NCBI GenBank assembly: GCA_964638155.1
Contig: CAZWYI010000008.1
Coordinates: 4,787 to 68,786, forward strand
From: an uncultured Thermoplasmatales archaeon
GTDB taxonomy: Archaea; Thermoplasmatota; E2; DHVEG-1
Direction of reading: 5' to 3'
Length of the DNA: 64,000 bases
Part shown: positions 39,078-59,108 of the stretch, piece after piece
Numbering within the stretch: position 1 is the first letter of the stretch
Layout of the letters: every line of letters starts with the position of its first letter
Translations under genes and position numbers: made by a program
Notes under the pieces: generated by a model
What the model was told of the DNA's origin: nothing
The model's database searches: none
What the model saw: the letters and a program-made list of their open reading frames with translations, nothing else

Positions 39078-39080
39078 TTT

Positions 39081-39488: not shown

Positions 39489-39495
39489 AAAAAGT

Positions 39496-40219: not shown

Positions 40220-41527
40220 ATGGATCATATGTTTAACCCTAAAATCGAGAAGATATCAAGAAAAAAACTTAAAGAAATTCAGTTAAAAAGACTAAGAGAA
40301 ACCGTCCATCTTGTATATGATAATGTACCATTCTACAAAAAGAAATTCAAAGAAAAAGGAATTACTCCAGACGATATCAAAACTCTTGATGATATAACAA
40401 AACTTCCTCTTACAACTAAAGACGACTTACGAGATAACGCACCATATGGCATGATGGCAACTAGTCTTGATAACTGCATTGAAATGCATGCATCAAGTGG
40501 TACTACAGGAATTCCAGTTACTGCATGCTACACAAGAAACGATATGGCTGTATGGGCAGAAGTTATGGCACGGTGCCTTGCGATGTCTGGGCTATCTAAA
40601 AAAGATATTTTCCAAAACCCTATACCCTATGGTACTTTTACTGGGGCTTTTGGTTTTCATTATGGTGCACAAAAGGTTGGTGCTATGGTAATTCCTTCTG
40701 GAAAAGGTCAGTCTGAAAGACAATTGAAACTAATGGATTATTATGGTACAACCTTTGTAAGTGGCGTTGCCTCATATATCCTGCGTCTTTCGCAAGTTGC
40801 AAAAAATATGGGTCTTGATCCTAAAAAGGATTTAAAAGTGAGAAACGGTCTTTTTGGCGCTGAAATGTTTACTAAGGGCCTAAAAAAACGTATTGAGGAT
40901 ACTTGGGATATGGATGTCCATGATATCTATGGTCTAACTGAAATGTGTGGACCAGGTGTTTCTACTGATTGTGATGAGCATAACGGTCTTCATCTATGGG
41001 AAGATCATTTCTACATTGAAATTCTTGATCCAATAACACTTGAACCAGTTGAACCTGAAGAAGAAGGTGAAATTGTTCTTACTACTCTTTCAAAAACTGG
41101 TATGTCTCTTCTTCGTTATAGAACACGGGATCTAGCTAAAATTTTTGACGAAAAAGTATGTGACTGCGGTAGAACCCATGTAAAACATACTCCAATTAAA
41201 GCCCGTAGTGATGACATGTTGATAATACGTGGAACAAATATTTACCCTGGTCAAATCGAATCAGCTATTATGAAAGATCCAAAGGTTGGAAACAACTGGA
41301 GAATGATTATCAATACTGATAAAAATGACATGGATCAACTAACTGTTGAAGTTGAAACAAAGAAACTATTAAGTAAAGTAGACAAGGAAAAACTAGAAAA
41401 CAAACTAGAAAATGATATTAAACAAGTAATTGTTTTTACACCTACTGTATCTATACTTCCGCCTAATGGTATAGAACAAAAAGGCCTGAAGGCAAAACGG
41501 GTAATTGATAATAGAAAAAAGGAATGA
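40220..41527 (+). CDS. paaK: Phenylacetate-CoA ligase family protein
   Basis: HASSGTTG, YGLTEMCGPG, RYRTRD, RSDDMLIIRGTN. Confidence 0.9.
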   Translation: MDHMFNPKIEKISRKKLKEIQLKRLRETVHLVYDNVPFYKKKFKEKGITPDDIKTLDDITKLPLTTKDDLRDNAPYGMMATSLDNCIEMHASSGTTGIPVTACYTRNDMAVWAEVMARCLAMSGLSKKDIFQNPIPYGTFTGAFGFHYGAQKVGAMVIPSGKGQSERQLKLMDYYGTTFVSGVASYILRLSQVAKNMGLDPKKDLKVRNGLFGAEMFTKGLKKRIEDTWDMDVHDIYGLTEMCGPGVSTDCDEHNGLHLWEDHFYIEILDPITLEPVEPEEEGEIVLTTLSKTGMSLLRYRTRDLAKIFDEKVCDCGRTHVKHTPIKARSDDMLIIRGTNIYPGQIESAIMKDPKVGNNWRMIINTDKNDMDQLTVEVETKKLLSKVDKEKLENKLENDIKQVIVFTPTVSILPPNGIEQKGLKAKRVIDNRKKE

Positions 41528-41531
41528 AAAA

Positions 41532-42203
41532 ATGAAAGATAATGTTAAAAAGTTGATACGTAAAAATGGCGCTCTTTCAGAAAAAGAAGTAAAAGACCTG
41601 CTTAGTGAGTATAATATTAAAACAACTAAATACAAGATTGTGAAAAAAGAAAGTGATATCAAGGATCTTGATTTAAAATTTCCAGTTGCCTTAAAGGTCT
41701 GTAGTAGTAAAATTCTTCATAAAACAGATGTGGGTGGAGTAAAATTAAATATTAAAAATAGTGAAGAACTTAAAAAAGAATTTAAGAAATTTAAAAAGAA
41801 ATTTCCAAAAGAAGATTTACTTGTAGACCAAATGGCAAAAAAAGGTGTTGAAGTAATCATAGGTTTAGTAAAGGATCCTACTTTTGGCCTAACTATTATG
41901 GTAGGTGTAGGAGGAATATATACTGAACTCTATAAAGATGTAAGTTTTAGAGTAATCCCCTTGATGAATAAGAATTCAGCTGAAGAAATGCTTAACGAAA
42001 TAAAGGGGAAAAAACTTTTAGAAGGGTTTCGTAATACGAAGGCAGATAAAAAACAGGTAATAAATTTATTAATGAAGGTATCAAAAATCGGGGAGGAACT
42101 TATGGATCGAATCGATCAAATGGATCTCAATCCGGTTTTTGTATATGAAAATAATTATTGTGTTGTTGATGCAAAACTTATATTAAAAAAAGGTGAAAAA
42201 TAA
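41532..42203 (+). CDS. ADP-forming acyl-CoA synthetase beta subunit (ATP-grasp)
   Basis: [33 protein letters not shown]. Confidence 0.9.
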
Positions 42204-43618
42204 TGCAAACAAAAACAGAGGAGTATAAAATTAAAGATATAAACCTAGCTGATTTTGGTAGAAAAGAAATTGAGATTGCTGAAAAAGAAATGCCAGGTCT
42301 AGTTTCAACTAGGAAAAAATATGGTTCAAAAAAACCACTTAAAGACGCTAAAATCACTGGTTCACTTCATATGACTATTCAAACAGCTGTTTTAATTGAA
42401 ACTTTAAAAGAACTTGGCGCGGATGTCCGCTGGGCAAGTTGTAATATTTTTTCCACTCAGGATCATGCTGCTGCTGCAATTGCAAAAACAGGAACTCCAG
42501 TTTTTGCTTGGAAGGGTGAAACCCTTAAAGAATATTGGTGGTGTACTCAAAAAGCACTTGATTTTGGTGATGGAAAAGGGCCAAATTTAATTGTTGACGA
42601 CGGCGGAGATGCAACACTTATTATTCATAAAGGATATGAAGTTGAAGAAAATCCTAGTCTTCTTGATAAAGATTATAGTAATGAGCAAGGTGACTTCCGT
42701 GCGCTTATGGCTCAGTTAAAAGAAATCTATAATAAGGATTCTGAACGCTGGCATCGTACCGTAAAAGATATGAATGGTGTTTCTGAAGAAACTACTACTG
42801 GTGTACATAGGCTTTATCAAAGGCAAAAACAAGGAACTCTTTTGTTTCCCGCGTTTAACGTAAATGATAGTGTTACAAAAAGTAAATTTGATAATTTATA
42901 TGGATGCAGGGAGAGTCTTGCTGATGGTATCAAACGGGCAACTGACGTTATGGTTGCTGGAAAAACTGTTGTAGTATGTGGGTATGGTGATGTTGGTAAA
43001 GGATGCTGCCAGTCTATGCGTGGTTTTGGTGCAAGGGTTATTGTTACTGAAATCGATCCTATTTGTGCTCTTCAGGCGTCTATGGAAGGTTATGAAGTAA
43101 AGACTGTTGAAGATTCTTTAGATGAAGGTGATATTTATGTTACCGCGACTGGCAACTGTAATGTTATAAAAGTTGACCATATGAGAAACATGAAGGATCA
43201 GGCAATTGTTTGTAATATAGGTCACTTTGATAATGAAATAGAAGTTGAAAAACTAGATAAACAAAGTGATGTAAATAAGGTTAACATAAAGCCCCAGGTT
43301 GATAAGTATGTTTTTCCTGATGGTCATGAGATTTTTATGCTAGCAGGTGGAAGACTTGTGAATTTGGGTTGTGCGACAGGCCATCCGAGTTTTGTCATGA
43401 GTAACAGTTTTACTAATCAGGTTCTTGCTCAAATTGAACTTTGGAATGATGACTACAAGACTGGTGTTTATATGCTTCCGAAGGTTCTTGATGAAGAAGT
43501 GGCAAGACTTCACTTGGATAGGCTTGGTGTAAAACTTACGAAATTAAATAAGAAACAAGCAGATTACATTGGTGTTCCAATAGATGGTCCTTTTAAGTCA
43601 AAGCATTATCGATATTAA
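42203..43618 (+). CDS. ahcY: Adenosylhomocysteinase (long form)
   Basis: [43 protein letters not shown]. Confidence 0.98.
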
Positions 43619-43637
43619 AAAAAAAGAAGAGAAGAGT

Positions 43638-43721
43638 TTAGATTAAACCAATTTCTTTTTGTATTGCTATCCATGCACGGGATAGCTCATATTCTTCATA
43701 ATCATCCACAGCGTTGCACAT
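43638..43721 (-). CDS. Possible leaderless 27-aa small ORF
   Basis: MCNAVDDYEEYELSRAWIAIQKEIGLI; TATA-like TTATATAG about 22 nt upstream; no homology evidence. Confidence 0.3.
   Translation of the reverse strand: MCNAVDDYEEYELSRAWIAIQKEIGLI
43666..43686. other. Perfect 7-bp hairpin downstream of ahcY
   Basis: GCTATCC-N7-GGATAGC. Confidence 0.4.
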
Positions 43722-43847
43722 AGTATTATATTTGCAATTAAGACTATATAATATTGTCGACTAATTTATCGACTATAAACGTTAAAAGTAATCTTTAAAG
43801 ATACATAAACTAAATGAACAACAATTTTATAACAACAAAAAAGACAG

Positions 43848-44588
43848 ATGAAAAAAATGATAACATTAATTGGAACTGGACACGTATTCAATCTAACCCA
43901 GCCATTACTTCATATATTCGATGAAAAACAACCAGATCTATTATGTATAGAACTAGATAGACAGAGATACCAGGGACTAATGCTTAAAAAATCAGATCCG
44001 GGAAAATACAAAGAAGCATCAAAAAACCAGCCAATTCTATACAAACTTTTATCAAGATTTCAAGATGGAATGGCCAAAGAGTATGGAACAGAGGCAGGCC
44101 AAGAAATGATAACAACAATAAACTATGCAAAAGAACACAATTTACCACTTGCATTTATAGATATAAACGCACAATACCTTTTTAGAAGAATGTTTAAAAA
44201 AATGAGTTTAAAAGAAAAACTAGCTTTAGTTTTCTCAGGTTTTGGAGGACTTTTTGTAAGTAAGAAAAAAGTAGAAAAGGAGCTAGAAAACATACAGAAC
44301 AATTTTGATTTTTATATGAAAGAAATTGGAAAAAAATTTCCAACATTAAAAAGAGTTTTAATTGATGAAAGAAACATTTACATGGTAAAGCAATTAATAG
44401 AAGCCCAAGAAAAATTTGATAAAATAATAGCTATAGTTGGCGATGGCCATATTCCAGGTCTTAAAGAGATACTTGAAACAAAAGATGTAGAATATAAAAC
44501 AATAAGATTAAAGGAGCTTAGAAGTTTTGATAAATCTATAGATAATTCCATGACTGCTTCTTTTTCATTTGAGCAAAAACAAGTATAG
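43848..44588 (+). CDS. TraB/GumN (Tiki-like) family protein
   Basis: LIGTGHV, CIELD, G-QE, LIDERN, VGDGH. Confidence 0.88.
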   Translation: MKKMITLIGTGHVFNLTQPLLHIFDEKQPDLLCIELDRQRYQGLMLKKSDPGKYKEASKNQPILYKLLSRFQDGMAKEYGTEAGQEMITTINYAKEHNLPLAFIDINAQYLFRRMFKKMSLKEKLALVFSGFGGLFVSKKKVEKELENIQNNFDFYMKEIGKKFPTLKRVLIDERNIYMVKQLIEAQEKFDKIIAIVGDGHIPGLKEILETKDVEYKTIRLKELRSFDKSIDNSMTASFSFEQKQV

Positions 44589-44598
44589 TTTAAAAATA

Positions 44599-44988
44599 TC
44601 AATCATAGTTATTTTCTATAATTTCAATTGCACGTGTAATATCATTTTCAGTAATTATTCCTACTATTATGTTATTATAAATTACAGGTAGTTTTTTTAT
44701 TTTGTTTTCTTTCATAACTTTTACTGCTTGCTGAACTGTCTGAAGTGAATCAATGGTTTTTAAGTTTGGTGTCATAACCTCTTTTACCTTGGTTATCTTT
44801 GGATTTTTTTCGTTTAATATTATTTTATCAATAATATCCCTCTCAGTAATTATCCCAACTATTATATCCCCTTTCTCTACTATTAGACTACCAAGCTTGT
44901 GTTCTTTGAATTTTCTACATGCATCCATCACAAGCTCATCACTATCTATTGTTTCAACTCTCTTAGTCATTATCTCATGTATGATCAT
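44599..44988 (-). CDS. CBS-pair protein
   Basis: Two CBS motifs (GIITERD, GIITEND). Confidence 0.9.
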   Translation of the reverse strand: MIIHEIMTKRVETIDSDELVMDACRKFKEHKLGSLIVEKGDIIVGIITERDIIDKIILNEKNPKITKVKEVMTPNLKTIDSLQTVQQAVKVMKENKIKKLPVIYNNIIVGIITENDITRAIEIIENNYD

Positions 44989-45174
44989 AATTTACAAATT
45001 TTGTATTTTTTTATAGTGTATAAATCTTTTTTATGGAAAATTATTAAATATTTTATTTATTCAACTATGCTCATAAATTTTAAAATATTTATAAAAATCA
45101 TAAGAGACTAAAAAGACAATTCTATTTTAATGAAAAGACTATTTAACTATCGGTTAATAATAAAAAAAATTATT

Positions 45175-45249
45175 GGGCCTGTAGCCTAGTCTGGATAGGG
45201 CGATAGCCTCCTAAGCTATAGATCGCGGGTTCGAATCCCGCCAGGTCCG
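45175..45249 (+). tRNA. tRNA-Arg (anticodon CCT), intronless, CCA not encoded
   Basis: Acceptor GGGCCTG/CAGGTCC; D arm GCCT/GGGC; anticodon stem ATAGC/GCTAT with loop CTCCTAA; T arm GCGGG-TTCGAAT-CCCGC. Confidence 0.97.
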
Positions 45250-45343
45250 TAATAATGATTAACATAATTTTCGTTTGGTTTTTTCCAAACATTTTAAATT
45301 AGTATATAAATAACCACTTACAAGATATTATATTGTGATGTTT

Positions 45344-45913
45344 ATGAAAAAACTGGGAATGTTATTAGTTGTTTTTATGCTTTGTATTATTATTTTAACT
45401 GGTTGTGTTAATAATAAAAAGGAAAACGATGGAAAAAAGGATACAAGTGATGACTTAACAACAAATGATGAAAAATCCGATGATGACGAAGGCCCTGAGG
45501 GAAAAACTGAAAATATAACTGTATCCACAGATAAAGAAACTTATGATATAGGAGAAACAGTAAATATCTCAATTAAAAATAACTTAAATACATCTCTAAA
45601 GATAAGAACGCCAACATATGACGTTCAAAAATATAATAATACTGAATGGACCTTAATGAGAAAATCTGCATATCCTTGTGAATCAAGTTGTGTAATGGGC
45701 ATGATACTCCCTAATTTCACAATAGATCCAAACCAAACATTAGAGTATCAGTGGGACCAAAAAGAGACATGGTGCATATACTCAGAATCCTCACCATGCC
45801 AATCTAAAACAGTTACAATTAATGCCACTACAGGAATTTATCGAATAAAATGTTATATTGAAAATAATGACACGATCTATTATGTTTATTCAGATGAATT
45901 TACAATAATATAA
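45344..45913 (+). CDS. Lipoprotein with an Ig-like domain
   Basis: Lipobox ILTGC; acidic linker; TDKETYDIGETVNISIKN...GIYRI. Confidence 0.75.
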   Translation: MKKLGMLLVVFMLCIIILTGCVNNKKENDGKKDTSDDLTTNDEKSDDDEGPEGKTENITVSTDKETYDIGETVNISIKNNLNTSLKIRTPTYDVQKYNNTEWTLMRKSAYPCESSCVMGMILPNFTIDPNQTLEYQWDQKETWCIYSESSPCQSKTVTINATTGIYRIKCYIENNDTIYYVYSDEFTII

Positions 45914-45914
45914 T

Positions 45915-46004
45915 TTGTTCCAACAGATAGCTGCATACAAGCAAAAAATAGACATTCTGAATGCATGTTTTCTCCTTTTGAGCAGGGGTAACCACCAGGT
46001 CCGT
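45915..46004 (+). repeat. Repeat copy R1, ending in CCAGGTCCGT (tRNA-Arg 3' end)
   Basis: Manual alignment: about 74/92 columns identical to R2. Confidence 0.88.
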
Positions 46005-46247
46005 TAATTTTTAATCAGATTATTTCTTTTTATTTAAAGAAAAATTTTCCATCAGATCGCAGTATTTTATCTTGTTTCTTCTTAATTTAAATTCATAAAA
46101 TCTTATACTCTTTCTGTTATAGAATCTCGTTTAAACCCAGATTGCATATACCGCCATGGTTGGAATAATTACTATTCTAGTTTTTAAGATTATTACTATA
46201 TAGAATATTTATTATTTTATTCCAAAGAAAAAATAAAGATCAAATAT

Positions 46248-48392
46248 TTATAATTGCATATTTCTAAATATTCTTTTCATTAAGTTTTGTATTAGTTGGA
46301 AGATTATATTGTTAAATATTTTATTGTTTTTTGGTGTTGAGAATTTCTGTGTTGCCCATGTGCTTTCAATGTTATATATGTCTTTTGAAATTACTTTGAT
46401 TTTAAATGTATCTCTTTTTGTCCATTTATGTTCAAGTTTAAGTTCATATCCTGAATCATAGGGTCCTTTCCATCCACTGTTTGTACCATCTCCCCAATTT
46501 ACATAGTAATATATTTGATCTCCATCTGGATCATTTGTTTTAAAGCTATATTCATATGTTCTTCTTTTTCTTCCATTGCCTGGCCCATCTATGGTTGGTT
46601 TATCTGGTGGTTTTGATAGATACATCTGCATTGGATCTGAATATTGACTATATCCTGTTTTATCTTTTGCTCTAATTGTTATTTGTATGTGTTGTTTTGA
46701 TGCGAAATTATTTGAGATTGATATATTTTCAATTGTTATTTTTTTATTTGAATTATATTTTCCATAAAGTATGGATTCATCTGTTATTGTATGTCCTGAG
46801 TTATCTTTTCCAGTTATCTTAAATTGATAGTAAACTTTATCATTTTCATTATCATTTGCTATGCAGTTAAAGCTGTATATTCCCCCTGGTTTTCCATATT
46901 CTGGACCATTTATTGTGGGTTTATCTGGTGGTTGATTATTTAATGTTGTAAAATTTAGTCTTTTTCCATTTGCCTCACCTGCTGGATTTTTTATATTTGC
47001 CCAGAAAATATATTTTTTATTTGGTTCTAAACCTGTTATTTCAGTTAATATTTCATCATTTGTGTAAAATGGTTTTTTCCATTCTGTATATTGTTTACTG
47101 CTTCCTTCTTTTTTGTATGTGAATCTTACCTCGCATTCTGATCCTCCATCATTAAATATCCATGCATTTATTTTTGCACTAGTGCTTCCTATCCATGTTG
47201 CATCAATTGTTTCAACTACTGGTAGGTTTATGCTTATTGTTATATTCCATTCTTTATCCTCTGGTAGTCTTTTATTTGTGCCATATGGCCCTTCAAAATA
47301 GAAATAATATTTATGTGTTCCAAGCCCAATGTCTTTACCTTGTATTATTTTTGAGTAATCTGAGTTGCTTCCTGATCCTTCCATCATATATATTTTATCA
47401 TCAATCATTAGATACTTGATACATGGTTCAACTTTATTTGGATGTTTATAATGCACTTTGAAGTTAAATTCTGTTTTATAATCTCCTTCATTTGGTATAA
47501 CACCTTCTTCCCAATCTTGGTATTTAGTTAGAAGCAATGGTTTATATACAATAAATTCAGGGCTACATCCAAGATAATTACCTTCGTAATATATTTTTAT
47601 TTTCCATTCTCCAACTTCATTTGGCGTCCATATATTCCATACACAAAAAGATGTCCAAGATTCTGATATTGAATAAGTGCTTGTATGTTTTATATTATTA
47701 TTTTTATACCATTTCCAGGTTATCTCATGTCCTTTCCATCCGTTTTCTAGTTCTGTATATGAATATATTTGATCATCGAATTTAAACTCTCTTTTTTCAG
47801 GTCCGTGATCATCATATCCTTCTACCCAGTCACATGTTATTGAATTTTTAAAAGTAGGAGTTCCATGAAGCACTTGGAAATTATGTTCAACAAGAAAAAC
47901 TCCATTGCAATAAAATTTTATTTTCCAGTTTCCACCATATTTAGGTGTATACCAAGCCCATGTAATGATATCACCAGAAGATTCTAGAGGATCCCATTCG
48001 CTTTGTCTGTTTACTTCTCCATCATATATATATTCTCTTGATAAAACATCACCTTCTTCTACATTGTTTATTTTTGCAAAAAAATATACTGTCTCACCCT
48101 GAATAAATTCAGTTGTTGGTTCACCATGATCATCATAACTGTTTACCCATTTACACAAAAATGAATATTCAATAGTTGGTGAGTTAGTTATTGGAGCTAT
48201 ATCTTTCGAATATTCAATATAGCTTATTTTATTGTTATTATTTGTATCACTAATATAGCCCATTGCATTAGTTAGAACATTATTTTTCTCTGTTTCATTT
48301 GCTGTTACTATTTTATTTGTTGGTGTTATTATTAGAATATTTGAGAATATAAATAATGATAGAATTATTGTTGTTAGTATTTTTTTCTTCAT
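46248..48392 (-). CDS. Secreted multidomain surface protein (two internal repeats, FnIII-like and PKD-like domains)
   Basis: Signal peptide; duplicated C(K/D)WVxxYDDHG module; PPDKPTIxGP...WGDG; amphipathic tail. Confidence 0.8.
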   Translation of the reverse strand: MKKKILTTIILSLFIFSNILIITPTNKIVTANETEKNNVLTNAMGYISDTNNNNKISYIEYSKDIAPITNSPTIEYSFLCKWVNSYDDHGEPTTEFIQGETVYFFAKINNVEEGDVLSREYIYDGEVNRQSEWDPLESSGDIITWAWYTPKYGGNWKIKFYCNGVFLVEHNFQVLHGTPTFKNSITCDWVEGYDDHGPEKREFKFDDQIYSYTELENGWKGHEITWKWYKNNNIKHTSTYSISESWTSFCVWNIWTPNEVGEWKIKIYYEGNYLGCSPEFIVYKPLLLTKYQDWEEGVIPNEGDYKTEFNFKVHYKHPNKVEPCIKYLMIDDKIYMMEGSGSNSDYSKIIQGKDIGLGTHKYYFYFEGPYGTNKRLPEDKEWNITISINLPVVETIDATWIGSTSAKINAWIFNDGGSECEVRFTYKKEGSSKQYTEWKKPFYTNDEILTEITGLEPNKKYIFWANIKNPAGEANGKRLNFTTLNNQPPDKPTINGPEYGKPGGIYSFNCIANDNENDKVYYQFKITGKDNSGHTITDESILYGKYNSNKKITIENISISNNFASKQHIQITIRAKDKTGYSQYSDPMQMYLSKPPDKPTIDGPGNGRKRRTYEYSFKTNDPDGDQIYYYVNWGDGTNSGWKGPYDSGYELKLEHKWTKRDTFKIKVISKDIYNIESTWATQKFSTPKNNKIFNNIIFQLIQNLMKRIFRNMQL
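46462..46514. repeat. 53-bp near-identical coding segment, second copy at 48646-48698
   Basis: 52/53 identical; encodes IYYYV(N/K)WGDGTNSGWKGP. Confidence 0.9.
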
Positions 48393-48404
48393 ATTTTCCC
48401 TCGA

Positions 48405-51400
48405 TTAATATCTTATTTGTAAAATCTTCTGAAATAGCCGTTCTATTATGTTGAATAATCTTGGACATTTGCTTATTATCTCTAAAAATAGATTTAGGTT
48501 TTTATCTTTGTTTTTAGGAATTTCAACTGACAATGTTGTCCACCCTGTTTCTTGTCCGTTTGAATCTTTTGCTTTTGCTTTAATTGTATATGTATCTCTT
48601 TCTGACCATTTATGTTTAAGAGTTATTTGTTCTCCAGAGTCATATGGTCCTTTCCATCCACTGTTTGTACCATCTCCCCATTTTACATAGTAATATATAT
48701 TATCATTTTCAGCATCTGTCGATACTAAGGTATAGCTGTATTTCACATCCTTTTCGCCTGTTGATGGTCCATTTAGGTTTGGTTTTGTTGGAGGAAAATT
48801 TTGTTCAGATATTTCTATGTTTAATGGATCTGACCATTGACTTGTTTTATATCCATTTGTTGCTCTGACATAAACATTGTAGTTGCCTTCATTTGTCCAT
48901 TTATGTGTTTTTTCAATTATTTCTCCTGAAATTATCCAATCTGTTTCTTCATCAACTTGTTTATCTCCATTCCAATCCCAGAAATATTTTAGTTGTTTGT
49001 TTGGGCTTGGATCTGATGTTGATGTCCTAAATGTGTAATCTCTGTTTATTACTCCTTGTCCTGGCCCGCTTATCATTGGTTTTGGTGGATGTAGCATTTC
49101 TTTTTTGCCTGCTTCGTACATTTCACAGTTTTGTATGCTACCTGTTTTTTCTTTTTCTATTATTATTGCTCCTATTTCATCTCCTGAGATGTCGTATTCC
49201 CATGTAGCTTGTGTTATTTTTTTATCTGTCATATGTAATAGCTGTATATCTTCCCATCCTTGGTTGAATTTTCTTGAATAACATAGGTTTTTTCCATCAC
49301 TCCATGCAACTACTGGTAATGTAGCTGTTGTTTCTTGGAGCACCCCTGTTCCTCCACTGAATAATGCTGTTGAGCTTCCTTGTTTTAGGTTTGAAAATAC
49401 TGTTTCTGGTCCATCTAGTGTTTTTAGTGTTCCTATTGAATCTTCAAAGAGTACATCAACGGTATGATCCTCAGGGTCTTCTTTCATCCATGAAACAGAA
49501 GGTGCAGCGTTATTTAGATAGTTAATTGATGGGTATGCATTTCTTCCCCCGTTTGTTATTTTTATATTATTTGAGGTTGTTGTTAGTTGGTTCATTAGAG
49601 TAAAGGTCTTTATGTATACATCATGATCATCTATATCTGGATTATCATTATTGGTTAGTAATCCGTTTGCATCTGCTACATATGCACATGCTGCTTCAAC
49701 TCCATTATATGATAGACTTACTGGTATTGATACAATGTTGTCATTACTAATTACTTGAGGCATTGTCCATTGGTTTTTATTCCAGAATGATCCATATAAA
49801 AACCTGTCATTTACTGTTATTCCACCTTGAGATATATCTGGATTTGTATCACACATCCATACAACTGCTGCTTTGTTATCACTTGCACTTATCACAGGAT
49901 ATGAATCTGTGGAATGATTTGTTGCACCTATTAGATTTGGTTCAGACCAACTACTTCCATCCCAGTAACAGTATCCTATTTCACTATTTTTTGCTACTTC
50001 TAAAATGGTTTTATCAGCAACTGTACTTTCTAGGCAGTTAAATACACATATTGCATCTCCATTATCTAACAAAGCTATTGAAGGGTTTGATTGAGCTAAA
50101 TTATCATTTGTTACTCTTTTTGGTGTATTCCAACTGTCTGTGTTTTTATTCCATTTTGAAAACCATATATCTAATCCATCTCCATTTGCTCCCTTGCTTA
50201 GATCATCTTGTGTCCATACCATCATTTTTTCCCCATTGCTGTTTCTTGCAATCGATGGATGAGACTTTGGAAACGCATCTTCAAGTAAAAGCCCATCTTC
50301 ATTATTTACCCAGCTCGGGTTTCCATAATTTCTTGGCATGTATTCCCAATTTGAGTTGATACTTGTTGGTGTTTCTGCTTGCATATAATTAGGCCAACTT
50401 GCAGACCACCATTCCCATCTTGCATCTATAACAAAAATTAGTTCTGCATATGCTCCAAAAGAAATTGAAACTTGGAAATCATCATATATACTATCCCCGC
50501 TCTCTGGTGCTTTAAACCGCCAATTCCCTGATACATCTGTATATAGACCCGCGCTTGCAGCACCACATATTCCAACTCCTCCTTTTAACTCGGCTCCAAC
50601 ACCTATTTTCCCATTTACGCTTTTGAAACAATTATTGTTGTATTTATTAGGTGAATTGAGATTAAAATCTACACCAGCATTAAAATATAGATTTGCTTCA
50701 GCACTAACAGGTACAGGTCCTACTGCTGTAGCAAAATAAAAAGCAGGATATTCATATCTTCCATTTAGATAAATGCAGAGTTCCCAGTTAAGATTATCTC
50801 CTACTTTATCAAAATTATATCTAACACCTGAGGATATCGAAAGCGAATCATATGCATCAATATCTACACCTGCACTACCTGTTAGAGTAACTTTATCTTT
50901 ATTTGGATTGTTTGCATATAGATCAATTTTCATAACCATGTCTTCCCAGTTAAATGTTAGATCATAGTCACCGCTGAATTTTTTAAGATTAACCTGACCA
51001 GGTACACTACCAACTATACTAATCAAATCCTGGAAATCATTAAATGAAAATTCAGAATGTAGATGATTTCCATCCCAGTTCTTATCTCCAGCAAGTTTAA
51101 TAGCTGCTTCTACCCAGACAGGTATATCTTTTATTCTTACAGATACAACATCTGTTTGTGATGTTCCCTCTGAATCTGTCACTGTTAATTCTGCAGTATA
51201 TGTATAAGCTGAACTATATGTATGTTTAGGGTCTTCTTTATCAGAAGTGCTTCCATCACCAAATTTCCAATGATAAGTATATGGCCCAACTCCTCCTTTT
51301 GCTTCACCGTTAAATTTAATCCAATAATCGGTAAATCCTTTGTAGTTACCATGAGCATCAGCTTCTAGAACATATACTGTTTTTTCATCACCCCAGTCAC

Positions 51401-52754
51401 TATATGCTCCTTGTTCATCCATAGCTTGTGCTTTAATATTAAAAGAACCTGATGATGACCATTTATGGGTTTTAGTTACTGTTTCACCAGAGTTTACAAA
51501 ATCCGTCCAGGAACTAATATCTCCATCACCCCAATCAAATCGGTATTTTACTCTATCGCCATTTGGATCAATTGTTTTTGTACTAAATTCAGTCAAACTG
51601 TTAATAGCAATAGACAAGGACCCTGATGGTTTATCTGGTGGATTAGGACATGGTTGTAATACTGCTTGTATCCAACCATCACCATTTATTGTGAAACTAG
51701 TTTCAGTTGAATATTCATCATCTATATCTATATTACTGGATACAGTCCATTTTTGAAAAACAAGATCATCCGGTACATTAACCTTTATCGGATATTCATG
51801 TTGATCGTCTACCCATAGTTTTTCGCCATCATAAAAATCATCTAATAAATAATGTATAGTTGTTGCATCTTCAGGGCTTGTCTTTATTTCTAATTCATCT
51901 CTTTTGATGTTTATTATATGTATTTGTTGATCTTCTGAGTCACTAACAATTAAATAATTTGGCCCAATGCATGCTAATCCACAATCTCCTGATTGTGGTA
52001 TATGGCCATTTACTAATCTTGGATTGTCTCTTGAATAATCTAGTGATATTGGTGATACTAATATACCGTTGTCCCATATGTAATTTGTATCCCAAGCAAG
52101 TCCCATATGATAATATGGAAGAGTAGAATTTGTTTTGATAGATTTTTTTACTTTGCCTGTGTCTAAATCTAAAAATAGATAATATCCATTTCCATTTTTT
52201 CTGCAACCATAAATTAAATGTTGGTAATCTGTTGTTAAACCTCCACATATAGTATCTTCACTTCTATCAAAACTCTTAATATTATCTCCAGTATTACTAT
52301 TAATTACATATATTTTTTTTGTTCCATAATCAGATATATAAAGCCGTTTTTCCATGCTGTGAAATGCAACACCTATTGGTTCAATACCTGGTAGATCATA
52401 ACTTTTTATGACTCTCCCTGAGAAAGGATCAACTGCTGTGATTTTATTGTCTTGTTTATCAGCAATCCAAAGAAATTCAGGGAAAAAAACATCAAATCCT
52501 ATCCCTGAGGGCTCAGGACCAGGTGAATTGTAACTTATTTCAATTTCACCATATTCACTATCATCATTATTTGTGTTTACAATTGACGATATTGCTTTTT
52601 GTATTTCTTCATCTGTTATATGATTTGTTATTTTGTTATCTTCCAGTTTTTTTTCATTAACATTTTTTGCTATATTTTTAGCAAATGATGCATTTAGAAT
52701 TGTTACTAGCATCAATAATATTATAAACATAGAAATTATTTTTTTCTTTACCAT
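48405..52754 (-). CDS. 1449-aa secreted surface protein (beta-propeller-like and several PKD-like domains)
   Basis: Signal peptide; PSGIGFD/PIGVAF propeller blades; WKFGDG, WGDG and WNGD PKD motifs; amphipathic tail. Confidence 0.8.
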   Translation of the reverse strand: MVKKKIISMFIILLMLVTILNASFAKNIAKNVNEKKLEDNKITNHITDEEIQKAISSIVNTNNDDSEYGEIEISYNSPGPEPSGIGFDVFFPEFLWIADKQDNKITAVDPFSGRVIKSYDLPGIEPIGVAFHSMEKRLYISDYGTKKIYVINSNTGDNIKSFDRSEDTICGGLTTDYQHLIYGCRKNGNGYYLFLDLDTGKVKKSIKTNSTLPYYHMGLAWDTNYIWDNGILVSPISLDYSRDNPRLVNGHIPQSGDCGLACIGPNYLIVSDSEDQQIHIINIKRDELEIKTSPEDATTIHYLLDDFYDGEKLWVDDQHEYPIKVNVPDDLVFQKWTVSSNIDIDDEYSTETSFTINGDGWIQAVLQPCPNPPDKPSGSLSIAINSLTEFSTKTIDPNGDRVKYRFDWGDGDISSWTDFVNSGETVTKTHKWSSSGSFNIKAQAMDEQGAYSDWGDEKTVYVLEADAHGNYKGFTDYWIKFNGEAKGGVGPYTYHWKFGDGSTSDKEDPKHTYSSAYTYTAELTVTDSEGTSQTDVVSVRIKDIPVWVEAAIKLAGDKNWDGNHLHSEFSFNDFQDLISIVGSVPGQVNLKKFSGDYDLTFNWEDMVMKIDLYANNPNKDKVTLTGSAGVDIDAYDSLSISSGVRYNFDKVGDNLNWELCIYLNGRYEYPAFYFATAVGPVPVSAEANLYFNAGVDFNLNSPNKYNNNCFKSVNGKIGVGAELKGGVGICGAASAGLYTDVSGNWRFKAPESGDSIYDDFQVSISFGAYAELIFVIDARWEWWSASWPNYMQAETPTSINSNWEYMPRNYGNPSWVNNEDGLLLEDAFPKSHPSIARNSNGEKMMVWTQDDLSKGANGDGLDIWFSKWNKNTDSWNTPKRVTNDNLAQSNPSIALLDNGDAICVFNCLESTVADKTILEVAKNSEIGYCYWDGSSWSEPNLIGATNHSTDSYPVISASDNKAAVVWMCDTNPDISQGGITVNDRFLYGSFWNKNQWTMPQVISNDNIVSIPVSLSYNGVEAACAYVADANGLLTNNDNPDIDDHDVYIKTFTLMNQLTTTSNNIKITNGGRNAYPSINYLNNAAPSVSWMKEDPEDHTVDVLFEDSIGTLKTLDGPETVFSNLKQGSSTALFSGGTGVLQETTATLPVVAWSDGKNLCYSRKFNQGWEDIQLLHMTDKKITQATWEYDISGDEIGAIIIEKEKTGSIQNCEMYEAGKKEMLHPPKPMISGPGQGVINRDYTFRTSTSDPSPNKQLKYFWDWNGDKQVDEETDWIISGEIIEKTHKWTNEGNYNVYVRATNGYKTSQWSDPLNIEISEQNFPPTKPNLNGPSTGEKDVKYSYTLVSTDAENDNIYYYVKWGDGTNSGWKGPYDSGEQITLKHKWSERDTYTIKAKAKDSNGQETGWTTLSVEIPKNKDKNLNLFLEIISKCPRLFNIIERLFQKILQIRY

Positions 52755-52896
52755 TTTTTCCTACTCCAAAAATTACCTATGAAACATTATTTTGATTTTG
52801 CCTTAATAAAATTATGTTTTTATGTTAAAATACTAACCAATAATATGTTTCATATTCAAACAAAACGTTATTTATGTAACAATATTCCTTAATTGG

Positions 52897-53046
52897 TTAT
52901 TTATTAAATTCTAATGCATGTATTGCACTAAACATAGCTGGTTCATAAAGTTCTTTTTTCAGACTGATTTTTGCTGATTCTAAATAGTTCAAACTTAAAT
53001 TTTAATAATCTTGTATCTTATCAATTGATCTTTTATCCTGCCTCAT
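52897..53046 (-). pseudogene. Truncated HEPN toxin with an in-frame TAA
   Basis: MRQDKRSIDKIQDY*NLSLNYLESAKISLKKELYEPAMFSAIHALEFNK*; ATGA overlap with the MNT gene; matches the HEPN N-terminal helix pattern. Confidence 0.7.
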
Positions 53047-53675
53047 TGATTACCCTTCTCATATAATATAACACCGTTTTCTTTTATTTGTTTTTGTAAG
53101 GATTTATCCATATTTTCATATTCTTTCATATTTTTGAAGAGTGGTTTTCCCTGATGATTGCATTTATTTGAAGCTGCAGCAATTAAATCCCGGATTTCGT
53201 TTTTTTGTTTTTTTGACCAAGATTCTTTTAAAAATAATAAATCGATATCAGATTTTCTATGGGCCGCTCCTTGAGCAACAGATCCATATAATATTATCAT
53301 ATAGTTTTCAAAATCTACATTTTTTATTTCTTTAAGATAGTTTTTTACTTCTTTCCGGAATTCTTTTTGTTCAATATATCCAATATACAAATTGTTAGCA
53401 TCTATTGGTTCATCTGCCTTGAAACCTATTATTGATTTATTTATTGTATCTATTGAAAAAACTATTTGGAATTCTTGTAAACTATATCTTATTGTTCTTC
53501 CAACAGAATTTCGTTCATAGGTTCCTTTTATTATGTTTTGCTCTTCTAGTTTTTTTAAATGTTTAGATATTGCTGGTTTGCTAATTCCGATCACTGCAGA
53601 TATTTCGGGGAGTGTTTTATCATTCTGAACTAGTAGTTCTATAATTCGTTTTTCGTATTTATTTAGCAATTCCAT
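53043..53675 (-). CDS. ArsR/MarR-type HTH fused to a minimal nucleotidyltransferase (MNT antitoxin-like)
   Basis: TLPEISAVIGISKPAISKHLKKLE; LYGSVAQG...SDIDL. Confidence 0.88.
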   Translation of the reverse strand: MELLNKYEKRIIELLVQNDKTLPEISAVIGISKPAISKHLKKLEEQNIIKGTYERNSVGRTIRYSLQEFQIVFSIDTINKSIIGFKADEPIDANNLYIGYIEQKEFRKEVKNYLKEIKNVDFENYMIILYGSVAQGAAHRKSDIDLLFLKESWSKKQKNEIRDLIAAASNKCNHQGKPLFKNMKEYENMDKSLQKQIKENGVILYEKGNQ

Positions 53676-53746
53676 TTTACCAACATATTAACTAATTAAT
53701 TAATAAGCTTTTTTGTTAGTTATGTCAAAAGATAATCTGCTATATG

Positions 53747-53835
53747 TTGTTCCAAATAGATAGCTTCATACAAACAAAAAATTGATGTTTTGAATGCATT
53801 TCTCCTTTTGAACATGATTAAACTGCCAGGTCCGT
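53747..53835 (+). repeat. Repeat copy R2; GCCAGGTCCGTA matches the tRNA 3' end plus flank (12 bp)
   Basis: Manual alignment to R1. Confidence 0.88.
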
Positions 53836-53902
53836 ATTTTTTTCTGTATGCAAAATCATGATGTTTAATATTATCAAAAGAAATTGTATCTGATTTTTAA
53901 TT

Positions 53903-53991
53903 TTACTACAAAAGATAAATTCATAAAAGTAAAAAATACATGTTCTGAATGCATGCTTTCCCCTATAAACCAAGTATAACTAAACAGCTCC
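53903..53991 (+). repeat. Degenerate repeat copy R3
   Basis: 58/80 ungapped identity to R1 including TTCTGAATGCATG; ends ACAGCTCC versus CCAGGTCC. Confidence 0.75.
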
Positions 53992-54000: not shown

Positions 54001-56988
54001 TTATTGATTCCTTTTTCTTCTATAGAAAATCAGTCCAATAAATACAGAGAAAAATACTGCAATAACTCCAAAACCAGGTGTATCACTTAACTCATCTGAA
54101 GAAGTATTATCCTGATTTTGATCATCAGATTCATCACTAGTTGAAAATGACCCTGTTGCTGAACTTGTGGCCCATTCATCAGGAGTAACAACCATTTTTT
54201 CATTCGCATCCATTGAAAAATCACCCTTTGATTCAGGAATATACTCTATTTGAGGATTATTATCAAGTGATTCTGTGCTCTTTGTTATTGCTGTAAATGT
54301 AAACGGGGAATCAAAAGTTTCTACAACGAGATCATCATAATCTTCAGAAACATAAAGCTCTATTTCTGCTCCTTCATCATTCTGACCACTTGTAAAAATA
54401 TATTCCCTGCCTACAAATGGTGAATTATAGAATTCTTTTACAAAATGGATAGAATACTCCAGTATATCACCTTCACTGACTTTTGTTACATTTCCTCGTT
54501 TAAATCTAACCGAGTGATCAGTAGCCACATCCGATGTTGAAAGTGGTGTAAAGGTTATCTGATCGGCAGTATCTTTTGTGGTGGTCACATTCTCAAAACT
54601 ATAAAATGAGGTATTGTGCCAAAGCATCAATGAATAAACGCCTGAATCACTTTCAGATTCAACAGTACTTTCTGTGTGAATTGTTAAAGAAACATTACTT
54701 GGTAGCATGAACATATCAACGGTTCCATCAGCTCCATTTGATTCGAAAATTGGTGCTGAATAGGGTATTTCAGAGATAATTTCTCCGTTCACATATCCTG
54801 TTTTTCTTCCAGATGAACCCTCAGCATAAAATGATGCATCACCTGAGCCATACATTAGTGTCTGCATTGGATCAGGTAGTTTTTGATCCGTGATACCTAC
54901 AGTTGTTGGAGTTGTGCCAATGTAATTTATAGAACTAGGGTTACCTATAACTGTTTCATATGGTGTGTAATAAATATTTTCATTCCATGTAGAAGTACTG
55001 TTCCATTCATAGGACCACCAGCCATCCCTAGACCATCCATCCTCTCCAAAAACAATGAAGGGGTATTGATTAAAATTCGTAAAATCTGTTGAATCATGAG
55101 TGCTAACATATGCATGGTTTGGATCATAGATAAAGACATTATAACTATCGCCTCCAAGAGGAACTACTCTCCAAGGCACAACCGCATGACCTTTGCTTCC
55201 TTCAAAAATTGAGATAATCCCCGGTGTTCCTGCATTGAGGTCATCGATGATATCATCAAGGATGTCATCAATAAATGGATGTAGTCCCGATCCAGATCGT
55301 TCAGGTTGAAGTAGATATTGAGCGGATTTCAAGAGAAGTCGATGGAAACTGTATTGTCCTGCTTGCCGGGCGTAATAATAAGGCCAGGTATTATTCCAAT
55401 TCTCCCTCTCAAGATCATCGATGCTAACAGCAGTTGGTTGAATTAAATTCGCATAAAGACCTGATGACCCATCAGCTAGTTCAAGAGATAACGCACACAT
55501 ACCATAACATTGACCTCTACGCCCTCCTTCTCTCACCTTATTCTGAAACAGGTAATCGGCATGAGGTTTTCTCCAACCATGTTCCTCGTTCCACCATATC
55601 TCATCACCAAAGATAGATTCCATCATACTCCAACTCCAAGTATGATTCTCATCACATCCCCAATTTGCAAAAGGAAGACCCCAATACCATTGCCATGGTG
55701 CACCAATTTCGATATTTTCTCCTTCTACTCTTGTGGATCGGTCTTCTGTATCATATGCCCTTACTGAATATCGTAATGTGCAAGGAGCAGAGCAATCATC
55801 AAGGATGTCAACACCGTTGTATACTGTGATCGATCGTTCAACATCTGTTTGTGGCGGATCAATCGTGAAATCAACGGGCATTCCATCAACAGTGATCGTC
55901 ATGAAATCAATTCCATCTGGATCAGTTGCTGTTGCCGTGACATCTATTCGCTGTCCATCCATTGGAAGCAAACTATGTTTTGCTGGTATAGCATTATCCT
56001 CTTCGAATTCAATATCAATAGTTACAACAGGATCACTTCCTGTTCCTTGTACCTCGATATCGAAAGTTTCCCCTACAGGGGCTTCGCTTCCTTGATCATC
56101 AGCAAAAATGCTGAAGGTATACGTTCCGGTGGTTAGAACCTCAGAATAGTTACAGGATAATGTTGTTTGGGTTCCTTCGGCCTCACAATATTCAACTTCA
56201 TCTCCGCCTTTTTTAATAGAAATATATTGCATGGCAACATCATCTGTTGCAGTTACTGAGATTATTACGGTATCACCTGATTGTGGATTTTCAGGATTGA
56301 CCGTATATTCTATCTCGCAAGGTGTTGTATCCTCCGTTGGTTCTTCAGGAGGATCTGGTTCTTCTCCAGTTGAAGTTTCATAAGTTATCTGTAACCGAGG
56401 CCTGTAAGCCGCATCATTATCACTGTAAAATACATAAGAGAAGAATTGATCATATTGCTCATTAACAAACAAAACTCCATAATTTTGACTTGGAGTATCA
56501 ACCCAATCTTCAACTAACGTTAATGCATTAAAATCATACGGACCATCTGTTCCCACATTCTTTTGATCAATTGTTGAAGAGACAGAAGGCTTGTTATTCC
56601 AATTTAACGTATCCTCATTCCAAGATGTTGTTGCCTTTCTCATCTCTGTTAATGCATTATCCGAACCATATTCTGAACACCATAAACGAATTTTTGCACT
56701 TTTAATAACTGCATCAGACGGAAGATCAATGTTATTGAACTTTACATAGAACTGATAATCATTATTGAACTCGTCTTGCCCAAGTATCAGATTATATTTA
56801 TCCATGCCTGTGTTGTAATTCATTGATGGTAATCCTCGATAGACATAACTTGATTCATCGGAGTAAAAATATGCAGTATACGTCACTGGTTCCGATGGCG
56901 GAGCTGATTTTACAGATATACTGAAAACAGGTATTATCATAACAATTGTTAATATAAAGCAGATTATTTTAGGCACATAGTTCTTCAT
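54001..56988 (-). CDS. PGF-CTERM surface protein with a DNRLRE-like domain, Ig-like domains and a putative papain-like Cys-His-Asp domain
   Basis: GGAGG RBS before ATG 56988; TLNWNNKP...RPRLQITY; GQCYGM, GHAV, YDPN; TPGF-TM-RRKR. Confidence 0.8.
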   Translation of the reverse strand: MKNYVPKIICFILTIVMIIPVFSISVKSAPPSEPVTYTAYFYSDESSYVYRGLPSMNYNTGMDKYNLILGQDEFNNDYQFYVKFNNIDLPSDAVIKSAKIRLWCSEYGSDNALTEMRKATTSWNEDTLNWNNKPSVSSTIDQKNVGTDGPYDFNALTLVEDWVDTPSQNYGVLFVNEQYDQFFSYVFYSDNDAAYRPRLQITYETSTGEEPDPPEEPTEDTTPCEIEYTVNPENPQSGDTVIISVTATDDVAMQYISIKKGGDEVEYCEAEGTQTTLSCNYSEVLTTGTYTFSIFADDQGSEAPVGETFDIEVQGTGSDPVVTIDIEFEEDNAIPAKHSLLPMDGQRIDVTATATDPDGIDFMTITVDGMPVDFTIDPPQTDVERSITVYNGVDILDDCSAPCTLRYSVRAYDTEDRSTRVEGENIEIGAPWQWYWGLPFANWGCDENHTWSWSMMESIFGDEIWWNEEHGWRKPHADYLFQNKVREGGRRGQCYGMCALSLELADGSSGLYANLIQPTAVSIDDLERENWNNTWPYYYARQAGQYSFHRLLLKSAQYLLQPERSGSGLHPFIDDILDDIIDDLNAGTPGIISIFEGSKGHAVVPWRVVPLGGDSYNVFIYDPNHAYVSTHDSTDFTNFNQYPFIVFGEDGWSRDGWWSYEWNSTSTWNENIYYTPYETVIGNPSSINYIGTTPTTVGITDQKLPDPMQTLMYGSGDASFYAEGSSGRKTGYVNGEIISEIPYSAPIFESNGADGTVDMFMLPSNVSLTIHTESTVESESDSGVYSLMLWHNTSFYSFENVTTTKDTADQITFTPLSTSDVATDHSVRFKRGNVTKVSEGDILEYSIHFVKEFYNSPFVGREYIFTSGQNDEGAEIELYVSEDYDDLVVETFDSPFTFTAITKSTESLDNNPQIEYIPESKGDFSMDANEKMVVTPDEWATSSATGSFSTSDESDDQNQDNTSSDELSDTPGFGVIAVFFSVFIGLIFYRRKRNQ

Positions 56989-57110
56989 TTTTTTAACCTC
57001 CCGATAAAATATTTTATTCTCCGTGGTGTAAATTAACAAGTATTATTAACGGTTTCTTTTTATTTTGCATACATAGTAATGTTTTAAAACAAGATAATTG
57101 GTCTTTATTT

Positions 57111-58928
57111 TCATTTTTTTACCTGTTTAAGACATCCGCTGTTAAGCGCATATTCATAGTTTTTCTCATTGTGATCACCAATAAAAACAGTATCGCCGAC
57201 TTTATATTTCGTATGGGTAGTCCATTCCGTAAACGATTTCTTTACAACATATTTTTTAAGCCCAGATTTTGAAAGATAGGACAACTTTTTATCAGATAAA
57301 TCTGTAAGTTCATTTATTCTTTGTTGTTTGAATTTGGTGTAATTTCCAGGATATGTTTTAATGGCATGGTCTTTCATGAAAAAAATAGTATCAGAAACTG
57401 AATCAAGAAACATTCGATCATGAGATGCAACGATAACGGTTCCGCCATAGCTATTCAAAGCACGTTCTATTGCTTTTTTTGATTGAATATCCATATGATT
57501 CGTAGGTTCATCAAGAATAAGGAAATTATACGGCTGCATCAGTAACCTGAGAAGAGAAACCCGTGCACGTTCACCACCTGAGAGTTGATTAATTTTTTTA
57601 TAGATTGCTTCTCCTTTGAAATTGAATTGACCAAGTAACGCTTTTGCATCGTTTTCATCAAGATCTTTATGGTCTTTTAACACTTCATTAACCAAAGTGT
57701 TTTTTGGGTTTAAAGAAAGATGGGCTTGATCAAAATATCCATATTTTACACCTTTGCTTATTTGAATGGTTCCTGTGTCTTGTTTCTCTTCACCAGTCAA
57801 TAGTTTTAATAACGTTGTTTTTCCACAACCATTGGGTCCGATTAAACCTATTTTTTGCCCAGAAAAAATCTCAAAAGCAGCGCTCTCAAGGATTGTTTTA
57901 TCATTAAAATGTTTACCTATTCCACTTCCATCGGCAACGTTTTTTCCTGATTTAAATGATGATTCAAAATTAAAACGTAAGAGATACTTTTTCAGAACAG
58001 GGTTTTCTAAATGTTTGGATTTCTCCATTCGTTTCATTTTACTTTTGATCTGTATATCATATTTATTCCGCCGTGTCATTTTCTGAATGGATGCTTCTTG
58101 TTGTTTCATTTTTATTAATGATTTCTTGTATTCCCGATATTTCTGCTGTTGTCTAAGACGATTTTGTTCAAGATATTCCTCGTAATCTGCGTTAAATACC
58201 TGGATGTTATCTCCTTGAAAATCAAAGACCCTGTCAACAAGATCGTCAAGAAGGTACTCATCATGGGTAATAATCATCACAGAACAGGGTAAATCAACGA
58301 TTCCCTCTTCTAACCACTCAATTGTCTCAATATCAAGATGATTTGTTGGTTCGTCAAGTAGCAGTAAATCACATTGATCCGGTTGAACAAGAACACTAGC
58401 CAAGGATAGTTTTTGATGTTCACCCCCTGAAAGAACCTCCATTTTATCTGTAAGAGAGATATATTCTAAAGAAACCTCTTTGAGGATTTTCATGACCTCA
58501 TCTAATAGAGACTCCTTTGTTGATTTGCCGATTGAAACCTTTAACTCCTGTATTTTTTCAAGGATTATTTTATATGCATCTGAATTGTATATCTCAGGGT
58601 TTTCAAGTTGTTTTTCATATTTTTTTAATTGCTGCTGGTAGCTGTGTTCATTAATTTGTTGAGTAATAAATTGTTGAACAGTTACATTTTTTTGATGCTC
58701 GATGGTTTGGTTCAGCATCCTGACCTTGAGATCATCCTTTATAAAAAGTTCACCATCATCTGGTAACATATCTTTTAAAAGAATGCGAAAAAGAGATGTT
58801 TTTCCACAACCATTCGGCCCAATTATTCCAATGCAATCGTCTTTATGCACATTAAAAGATGCCTCTTTGAAGAGTGTTTTACCTTGAATTGTTTTTGAAA
58901 TATTTTTAGCTTGAATTAATGAGTTCAT
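57111..58928 (-). CDS. ABC-F family ATPase (start could lie up to 58976)
   Basis: Two ABC domains (GPNGCGKT, LSGGE, DEPTNH) joined by a helical linker; no TM. Confidence 0.92.
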   Translation of the reverse strand: MNSLIQAKNISKTIQGKTLFKEASFNVHKDDCIGIIGPNGCGKTSLFRILLKDMLPDDGELFIKDDLKVRMLNQTIEHQKNVTVQQFITQQINEHSYQQQLKKYEKQLENPEIYNSDAYKIILEKIQELKVSIGKSTKESLLDEVMKILKEVSLEYISLTDKMEVLSGGEHQKLSLASVLVQPDQCDLLLLDEPTNHLDIETIEWLEEGIVDLPCSVMIITHDEYLLDDLVDRVFDFQGDNIQVFNADYEEYLEQNRLRQQQKYREYKKSLIKMKQQEASIQKMTRRNKYDIQIKSKMKRMEKSKHLENPVLKKYLLRFNFESSFKSGKNVADGSGIGKHFNDKTILESAAFEIFSGQKIGLIGPNGCGKTTLLKLLTGEEKQDTGTIQISKGVKYGYFDQAHLSLNPKNTLVNEVLKDHKDLDENDAKALLGQFNFKGEAIYKKINQLSGGERARVSLLRLLMQPYNFLILDEPTNHMDIQSKKAIERALNSYGGTVIVASHDRMFLDSVSDTIFFMKDHAIKTYPGNYTKFKQQRINELTDLSDKKLSYLSKSGLKKYVVKKSFTEWTTHTKYKVGDTVFIGDHNEKNYEYALNSGCLKQVKK

Positions 58929-59108
58929 TTTAGATGCAAATGAATTCATACAGTATAGATTTTTAGTTTTTATCATTCATTTAAAAAATAAATAACAAAT
59001 TCTTTATATAATGTAATTAATATATTATAAAATAATTAATAATGTTCAAAATGAAATGCTTCAGAACTTTGCATAATGACATAAATTGATTAATATAACG
59101 TGAGATAA

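Follow-up and report, generated by a model that had tools for sequence, protein, structure and literature searches.

A tRNA-Arg(CCT) gene and three diverged copies of an ~90-bp element downstream of it are found in the 64,000-nucleotide stretch of DNA from an uncultured Thermoplasmatales archaeon analyzed here (referred to as the window), and together they mark an integration hotspot of the ordinary kind at this tRNA, in this case holding only units that lack an integrase. Its history is probably one of serial integration, in which integrase-bearing islands inserted at the 3' end of the tRNA-Arg gene, left behind junctions composed of a conserved arm and a copy of the tRNA end (the core), and later lost their integrase genes. 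On present evidence, the locus fits the well-known process by which elements integrate serially into a tRNA gene and then decay. These islands account for a variable island of surface-protein and defence genes in a group of poorly known sediment archaea, and the analysis supplies a concrete attachment (att) site for them, consisting of an ~80-bp arm and a 14-bp core.

Three copies of a recombination site follow the tRNA gene

The only tRNA in the window is tRNA-Arg(CCT), located at 45175-45249 on the plus strand (ARAGORN and Rfam agree), which represents the integration target and the attL side of the array. The three copies of the element downstream are all oriented in the same direction as the tRNA and are designated arms R1 (45915-46004, plus strand), R2 (53747-53835, plus strand), and R3 (53903-53991, plus strand). 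They align over ~90 bp with a mean column identity of 82%, and over the arm columns R1 and R2 are 77% identical, R1 and R3 71%, and R2 and R3 64%. A profile built from arms scores R1 at E = 3e-27, R2 at 1e-23, and R3 at 2e-17. A pattern of the 23 positions that are invariant in R1-R3 matches the 64 kb exactly three times, at the arms and nowhere else, and seven times with up to three mismatches allowed, compared with 2.2 matches expected by chance. It is clear from these results that the repeat array is real and far above chance expectation, and alignment, profile, and pattern search all bear out the original prediction, which had placed three ~90-bp repeats and a tRNA-Arg(CCT) at these positions.

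The core shared with the tRNA, CCCGCCAGGTCCGT, occupies 45237-45250 and extends 1 nt beyond the discriminator base of tRNA-Arg(CCT). R1 has the form of an attR-type junction, with the arm module followed by the imperfect core ACCACCAGGTCCGT, while the imperfect core of R2 reads ACTGCCAGGTCCGT; each of these two differs from the tRNA at 2 of 14 positions, and the core of R3 is badly decayed, to ACAGCTCCTT. As had been predicted, the repeats finish in the last bases of the tRNA, since the decamer CCAGGTCCGT occurs at exactly three sites in the window, the ends of the tRNA, R1, and R2, and R3 is degenerate at the corresponding position. The arms divide the array into units of 754 bp (unit 1, 45251-46004), 7,831 bp (unit 2, 46005-53835), and 156 bp (unit 3, 53836-53991), in keeping with the segment lengths proposed beforehand.

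The arm is the far end of integrase-bearing islands

A specific arm pattern retrieved two metagenome contigs from the Joint Genome Institute (L122 and L123), and look-ups with integrase homologues supplied a further set (L124-L131 and L134). Together these bring the number of arm copies to 11: three in the window, three each in L122 and L128, and one each in L123 and L131. Each of the 11 terminates in a tRNA 3' fragment and, on contigs that include the tRNA, points in the same direction as the tRNA does. The original prediction had called for a check of whether further arms always end in such a fragment and flank variable cargo, and the eight further copies from four contigs all do end in one, with cargo that differs from genome to genome. 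What the loci have in common at the DNA level is confined to the tRNA, the integrase, and the arms, and the cargo is unrelated. Pairwise identities among the arms range from 55 to 78%, with R1 being 78% identical to the L123 arm. As the arms of the window are as distant from one another as they are from those of other genomes, they were acquired separately rather than through local duplication.

The nature of the arm is most apparent in L123, an 8.1-kb contig that contains, in order, a tRNA-Arg(CCT) 98.7% identical to that of the window, an integrase, a transglutaminase-like membrane protein, a DpnII-type restriction-modification set, a DndB/DpdB-like protein, a small membrane protein, and an arm. 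L123 is a complete integrated island of 7.9 kb, and the arm is its far, attR-side end. L128 begins likewise with a tRNA and an integrase, followed by 6 kb of island cargo (Ogg, QueC, TGT, HD, and CYTH-TIR) and an arm, and then by a methyltransferase unit, a second arm, a unit with a helix-turn-helix (HTH) gene and a DUF6036 nucleotidyltransferase gene, and a third arm. In L123, L128, and L131, an integrase-bearing island finishes, on the side away from the tRNA, in an attR-type junction of an arm with a duplicate of the tRNA 3' end, and the arms in the window are copies of this same element. The cargo of the intact islands consists mostly of defence genes, including the DpnII-type restriction-modification and DndB/DpdB-like genes at 485-4677 of L123 and, at 3084-7911 of L128, genes of the 7-deazaguanine pathway (QueC/TGT) and one for a CYTH-TIR protein.

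The strongest evidence that arm plus core constitutes the attachment site of the element comes from L131, because here the core has changed with the target while the arm has been kept. The L131 island resides in tRNA-Arg(CCG); it retains the arm module, and its terminal repeat is AATCCCGGCAGA, the 3' end of tRNA-Arg(CCG), where elements in tRNA-Arg(CCT) end in CCCGCCAGG... instead. Around 60 bp are inserted ahead of the core that matches tRNA-Arg(CCG) (L131 5480-5630 and 11003-11077). The L131 integrase, a related enzyme (67% identical), has switched its target to tRNA-Arg(CCG). The original prediction that the repeats are copies of a recombination site, generated by repeated integration at the tRNA 3' end and sharing one conserved arm, is supported.

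The cores themselves vary. The arms of L123 and L122b carry the exact 14-bp core CCCGCCAGGTCCGT, and the far-end cores of L122a (3464-3477) and L128a (2017-2030) read CCAGGCTCGT where the tRNA has CCAGGTCCGT; both sequences can pair with the 5' strand GGGCCTG of the tRNA. These GCTC-type far-end cores may be displaced native tRNA ends. R3 (CAGCTCC, at window 53980-53991) resembles the GCTC-type cores of L122a and L128a, which would fit R3 being the first junction, the one that holds the displaced native end of the tRNA.

An XerA-related integrase accompanies the islands

The L123 integrase is encoded by a complete open reading frame (ORF) of 331 amino acids whose stop codon is flush with the 3' end of tRNA-Arg(CCT), and the stop abuts the tRNA-Arg end in every integrase locus (L123-L130 and L134), with TTTTAG followed directly by ACGGACCTGGCGGG. 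The protein's match to the Phage_integrase catalytic domain of Pfam (E = 5.5e-35) identifies it as a tyrosine recombinase, and its nearest solved structures are those of archaeal XerA (PDB 4a8e, E = 1.5e-30). Its score against the NCBIfam model recomb_XerA_Arch is 162.9 bits, where the equivalog cut-off is 220, and we therefore reject its assignment as an orthologue of the XerA chromosome-dimer resolvase, to which it is related. About two dozen homologues are present in metagenomes, of which P0001-P0012 are 61-96% identical to it and one of these is labelled Candidatus Thermoplasmatota archaeon. No entry in the phage and plasmid collections is more than 29% identical to the L123 integrase. A viral origin was rejected, as IMG/VR contains neither arms nor relatives of the integrase, and its sole match (L132) arises by chance in a GC-rich phage. 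Fragments of a split integrase of the SSV type were likewise rejected as the origin of the arm, given that the integrase gene is complete and, when integrated, stops at the core boundary. A search of the literature on Thermoprofundales integrases and on the accessions of the sequencing runs found nothing relevant. The islands represent an undescribed tRNA-Arg-specific family, with a new integrase and att family in Thermoplasmatota.

In agreement with the prediction that the array is free of integrase, the 64 kb of the window encode no tyrosine recombinase, and tblastn with the L123 integrase gave nothing below E = 1 there. Close homologues of the integrase are present in sequencing runs SRR7048218, -225, and -228, which have accession numbers next to that of the window's own sample, SRR7048227. 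In the nearest integrase-bearing genomes, a TraB protein encoded in the flank is only 53% identical to that of the window, and these genomes therefore belong to lineages different from that of the window.

Units of the array

Unit 1 (45251-46004, plus strand) is composed of a hairpin, an AT-rich TATA-like stretch, a lipoprotein gene (45338-45913, lipobox LTGC), and arm R1. The stop codon of the lipoprotein gene, at 45911-45913, lies 1 bp upstream of R1, as had been noted previously. The hairpin at 45274-45289 is perfect (TTTGG-TTTTTT-CCAAA) and begins 24 bp past the tRNA, with the TATA-like stretch and then the lipoprotein gene following it, and on the basis of these two elements unit 1 seems to have terminator and promoter signals of its own.

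Unit 2 (46005-53835, plus strand) contains two genes for PKD-type surface proteins (46248-48392 and 48405-52754, both on the minus strand), a gene for a fusion of an HTH domain with an MntA-like nucleotidyltransferase (53043-53675, minus strand), and arm R2. The cargo of this 7.8-kb segment had been described as two PKD proteins and an HTH-nucleotidyltransferase paired with HEPN; the first two are present, and the HEPN partner is not, as there is no ORF of at least 40 amino acids before the next gene. A distance of 72 bp separates R2 from the start of the HTH gene, and L122 and L128 are arranged alike, with an HTH plus nucleotidyltransferase module adjoining an arm in the corresponding place and orientation. 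This module may be an addiction or defence module. The PKD genes are paralogues that share a 170-bp repeat in their C-terminal parts (46381-46550 and 48565-48734), which is 78% identical overall with a 54-bp stretch at 94%, and the Logan contigs break there. The non-coding region at 46005-46247 gave no tblastn signal for a relic of either a DUF6036 nucleotidyltransferase or an integrase. Unit 3 (53836-53991, plus strand) consists of a 67-bp spacer and arm R3.

Comparable units occur elsewhere. The three arms of L122 bound two units, one with HTH and DUF6036 genes and the other with a lipoprotein that bears no relation to that of the window. Single-gene units measure 754 bp in the window and ~0.9 kb in L122 and L128, and the units as a whole hold one to three genes in either orientation. 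None of the units in the window, L122, or L128 contains recombination genes, and their att arms are those of the integrase-bearing islands in L123, L128, and L131.

Probable serial integration and loss of the integrase

The history that we favor for the array would run as follows. An integrative island family inserts into the last ~14 bp of the tRNA-Arg(CCT) gene, its intact members bringing with them the XerA-related tyrosine integrase with its stop codon flush with the tRNA end. Each insertion would restore the tRNA at the near end (attL) and produce at the far end an attR-type junction composed of the conserved ~80-bp arm and a copy of the tRNA 3' end. With repetition, units would be stacked outward from the tRNA, with unit age falling toward it, and R3 is accordingly probably the oldest junction and R1 the youngest. 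The three units of the window would have lost the integrase gene, or never have had it; loss is the origin that we infer for them. In this respect, they may be likened to the cis-mobilizable elements (CIMEs) of bacterial tandem arrays, as integrase-less derivatives of the islands. The most likely role of the arm is to bind the integrase or a partner protein, and recombination would require it as such a binding site. Decay of the integrase in place does occur in the family, as L134 demonstrates: at 1079-2150, it carries an integrase gene that is 94% identical to that of L123, adjoins tRNA-Arg(CCT), and is frameshifted.

The assembly of the source sample provides a view of the locus in the population. 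Logan contigs of SRR7048227 match parts of the window with 100% identity. One of them, L120, corresponds to window 38377-45250 and ends at the last base of the core after 6.9 kb of unbroken upstream sequence, and another, L135, corresponds to window 45221-46491, overlapping the first by 30 nt, the overlap expected at a branch of Logan's k = 31 de Bruijn graph. This suggests that a different sequence follows the tRNA in part of the SRR7048227 population, and since L120 is unbroken over 6.9 kb, the second branch shares the upstream background. Nothing suggests variation of the three units themselves within the sample, as the contigs run unbroken through R1, R2, and R3. Exact-protein look-ups of the TraB and CBS proteins of the flank returned only the SRR7048227 contig.

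Several observations weigh against serial integration followed by integrase loss. No integrase-bearing element is present in the 64 kb available from the window's own genome, no excised circle or empty site was seen among the contigs examined, and the break at the tRNA end shows that there is a branch, not the identity of the other branch. Furthermore, the arms R1, L122c, and L128a, which belong to integrase-less units, are conserved at least as well as L128c, which bounds an integrase-bearing island, and such well-kept arms are not what simple decay predicts. Loss of the integrase alone also leaves the very small size of the single-gene units (754 bp and ~0.9 kb) unexplained.

Alternative explanations

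These small units and well-kept arms bear on an alternative that we regard as doubtful, in which the integrase-less units would be working non-autonomous cassettes, excised and reinserted at tRNA-Arg by the integrase of a co-resident island, with the upstream core and the unit's own arm plus core as the two points of excision. Under such a scheme, the array would serve archaea as a platform for capturing genes with surface and defence functions, with a sequence-conserved arm in the role of attC and an XerA-like integrase shuffling units of 0.75-0.9 to 7.8 kb among tRNA-Arg arrays. Integrase-less units with unrelated cargo and well-kept arms are indeed found in three independent contigs (the window, L122, and L128), and several of them are compact, from 754 to ~900 bp. 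An HTH plus nucleotidyltransferase module stands by an arm in one orientation at three loci with different neighbours, close homologues of the integrase occur in the accessions adjoining the window's sample, and the assembly graph of that sample branches exactly at the tRNA end. However, no circular junction was found, nor any identical unit in two contexts, and among the recurring HTH plus nucleotidyltransferase units, the proteins are no more than 24-38% identical and the DNA shows no similarity. The cores of R1 and R2 each have two mismatches to the tRNA and that of R3 is degenerate, the left ends of the units show no convincing common sequence, the unbroken Logan contigs reveal no unit-level variation, and the frameshifted integrase of L134 shows that decay in place happens.

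The same evidence determines how the interpretation in the original prediction has fared. Serial integration at the tRNA and a shared arm are upheld; the integron-like platform fed by a family of non-autonomous cassettes is not, as the arm belongs to autonomous islands with their own integrase (L123, L128, and L131) and the units, with their imperfect or decayed cores, look like derivatives of these islands. The analogy with integrons also falls short in that the arm is sequence-conserved and lacks a folded attC-like site, and in that the units contain one to three genes in either orientation. The integrase-less units may conceivably still be moved by an integrase acting in trans, and if they do prove mobile in this way, they would be a simple archaeal counterpart of CIMEs or of integron cassettes.

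It is very improbable that the repeats are non-recombinational, that is, a small RNA, a minus-strand peptide gene, or a regulatory or terminator element spread by local duplication whose tRNA-like end is coincidental, and this explanation is contradicted by the tRNA 3' fragment at the end of all 11 copies, which changes with the target tRNA, and by the arms marking the far ends of the integrase-bearing islands in L123, L128, and L131. Each of its specific forms was considered. A structured RNA is rejected, as Rfam matches only the tRNA and not the arm, and folding of R1-R3 on both strands is no better than that of shuffled controls (z-scores of -0.3 to +1.1). On the minus strand of each window arm, a GGAG-like motif and an ATG precede a short ORF (MHSE...), but this candidate peptide gene is rejected as well: the ORF shows no codon periodicity, with variability of 0.30, 0.31, and 0.27 at the three codon positions, and it is disrupted in 3 of 10 arms, two of which lack the start codon and one of which has an early stop. 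T-rich runs on both strands of the arm may represent archaeal terminators. A scan of a genome collection with a 17-base pattern gave 119 matches, all due to chance, a result limited to that pattern, which was too loose.

Comparison with known systems

Tandem accretion and cis-mobilizable elements are known from ICESt1 and the CIMEs of Streptococcus thermophilus. The array described here is similar in that units are stacked at one tRNA 3' end, each bounded by an att copy, and some units lack an integrase yet carry att sites akin to the ones found in an autonomous element. It differs in its archaeal host, in the absence of conjugation genes, and in having units down to a single gene. Accretion of islands in tandem has also been described at bacterial tDNA hotspots, such as the Asn tDNAs of Klebsiella (PMC4891358). 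Among archaeal elements, both tandem integration and loss of the integrase after integration have been documented (PMC8371274). The likeness is to elements with non-partitioned (class II, pNOB8-type) integrases, which target tRNA genes, keep the integrase gene intact after integration, and include tandem copies and integrase-less integrated elements. Unlike these, the integrases here form a separate XerA-related lineage found only on uncultured Thermoplasmatota-type contigs, with a stop codon flush with the core, and unlike the partitioned (class I, SSV-type) integrases, their genes are not split by integration.

The tycheposons of Prochlorococcus provide a further parallel, as their serial integration at tRNA genes leaves partial tRNAs and degenerate remnants (10.1101/2020.12.28.424599). 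In both cases, older elements are pushed outward and the result is a variable island with defence and niche genes. In contrast to tycheposons, L123, L128, and L131 show no replication module (primase or helicase), the elements reside in an archaeon, and a conserved ~80-bp arm accompanies every partial tRNA. The resemblance to integrons lies in an array of gene units that each end in a recombination site and in an enzyme that is a tyrosine recombinase. However, there is no platform of integrase, attI, and promoter, with the window lacking an integrase altogether, and the sites are conserved in sequence (55-78% identity) rather than being folded attC hairpins. The units comprise one or several genes in either orientation with their own upstream regions, and the recombinase belongs to the mobile island.

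Flanks of the array

The right chromosomal flank (54001-58976, minus strand) encodes a CBM96/DNRLRE surface protein and an ABC-F ATPase. The gene for the surface protein (54001-57039, minus strand) begins 9 bp past R3 and has a G+C content of up to 42%, compared with ~30% in its surroundings; its product carries a C-terminal membrane tail of the PGF type and matches Heimdall-CTERM weakly, and the gene may also have been horizontally acquired. The ABC-F gene (57111-58976, minus strand) has a homologue flanking tRNA-Arg(CCT) in L134. The two proteins are 59.5% identical, and the gene lies downstream of the array in the window and upstream of the tRNA in L134, a difference of side that points to a rearrangement, one end of which would lie near the tRNA. 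Ribosomal protein L15e is encoded in the sequence flanking the array, which identifies the host as an archaeon. The best named homologues of the host's adenosylhomocysteinase, at 81-82% identity, belong to metagenome-assembled Thermoplasmatales and Thermoplasmatota genomes, in keeping with the Thermoplasmatota lineage expected at the outset, and its closest homologues overall (P0122-P0124) are 90% identical. Elsewhere in the window, low-complexity coding sequence rich in lysine and glutamate at 9000-20000 gives rise to many spurious families of direct repeats (D1-D5).

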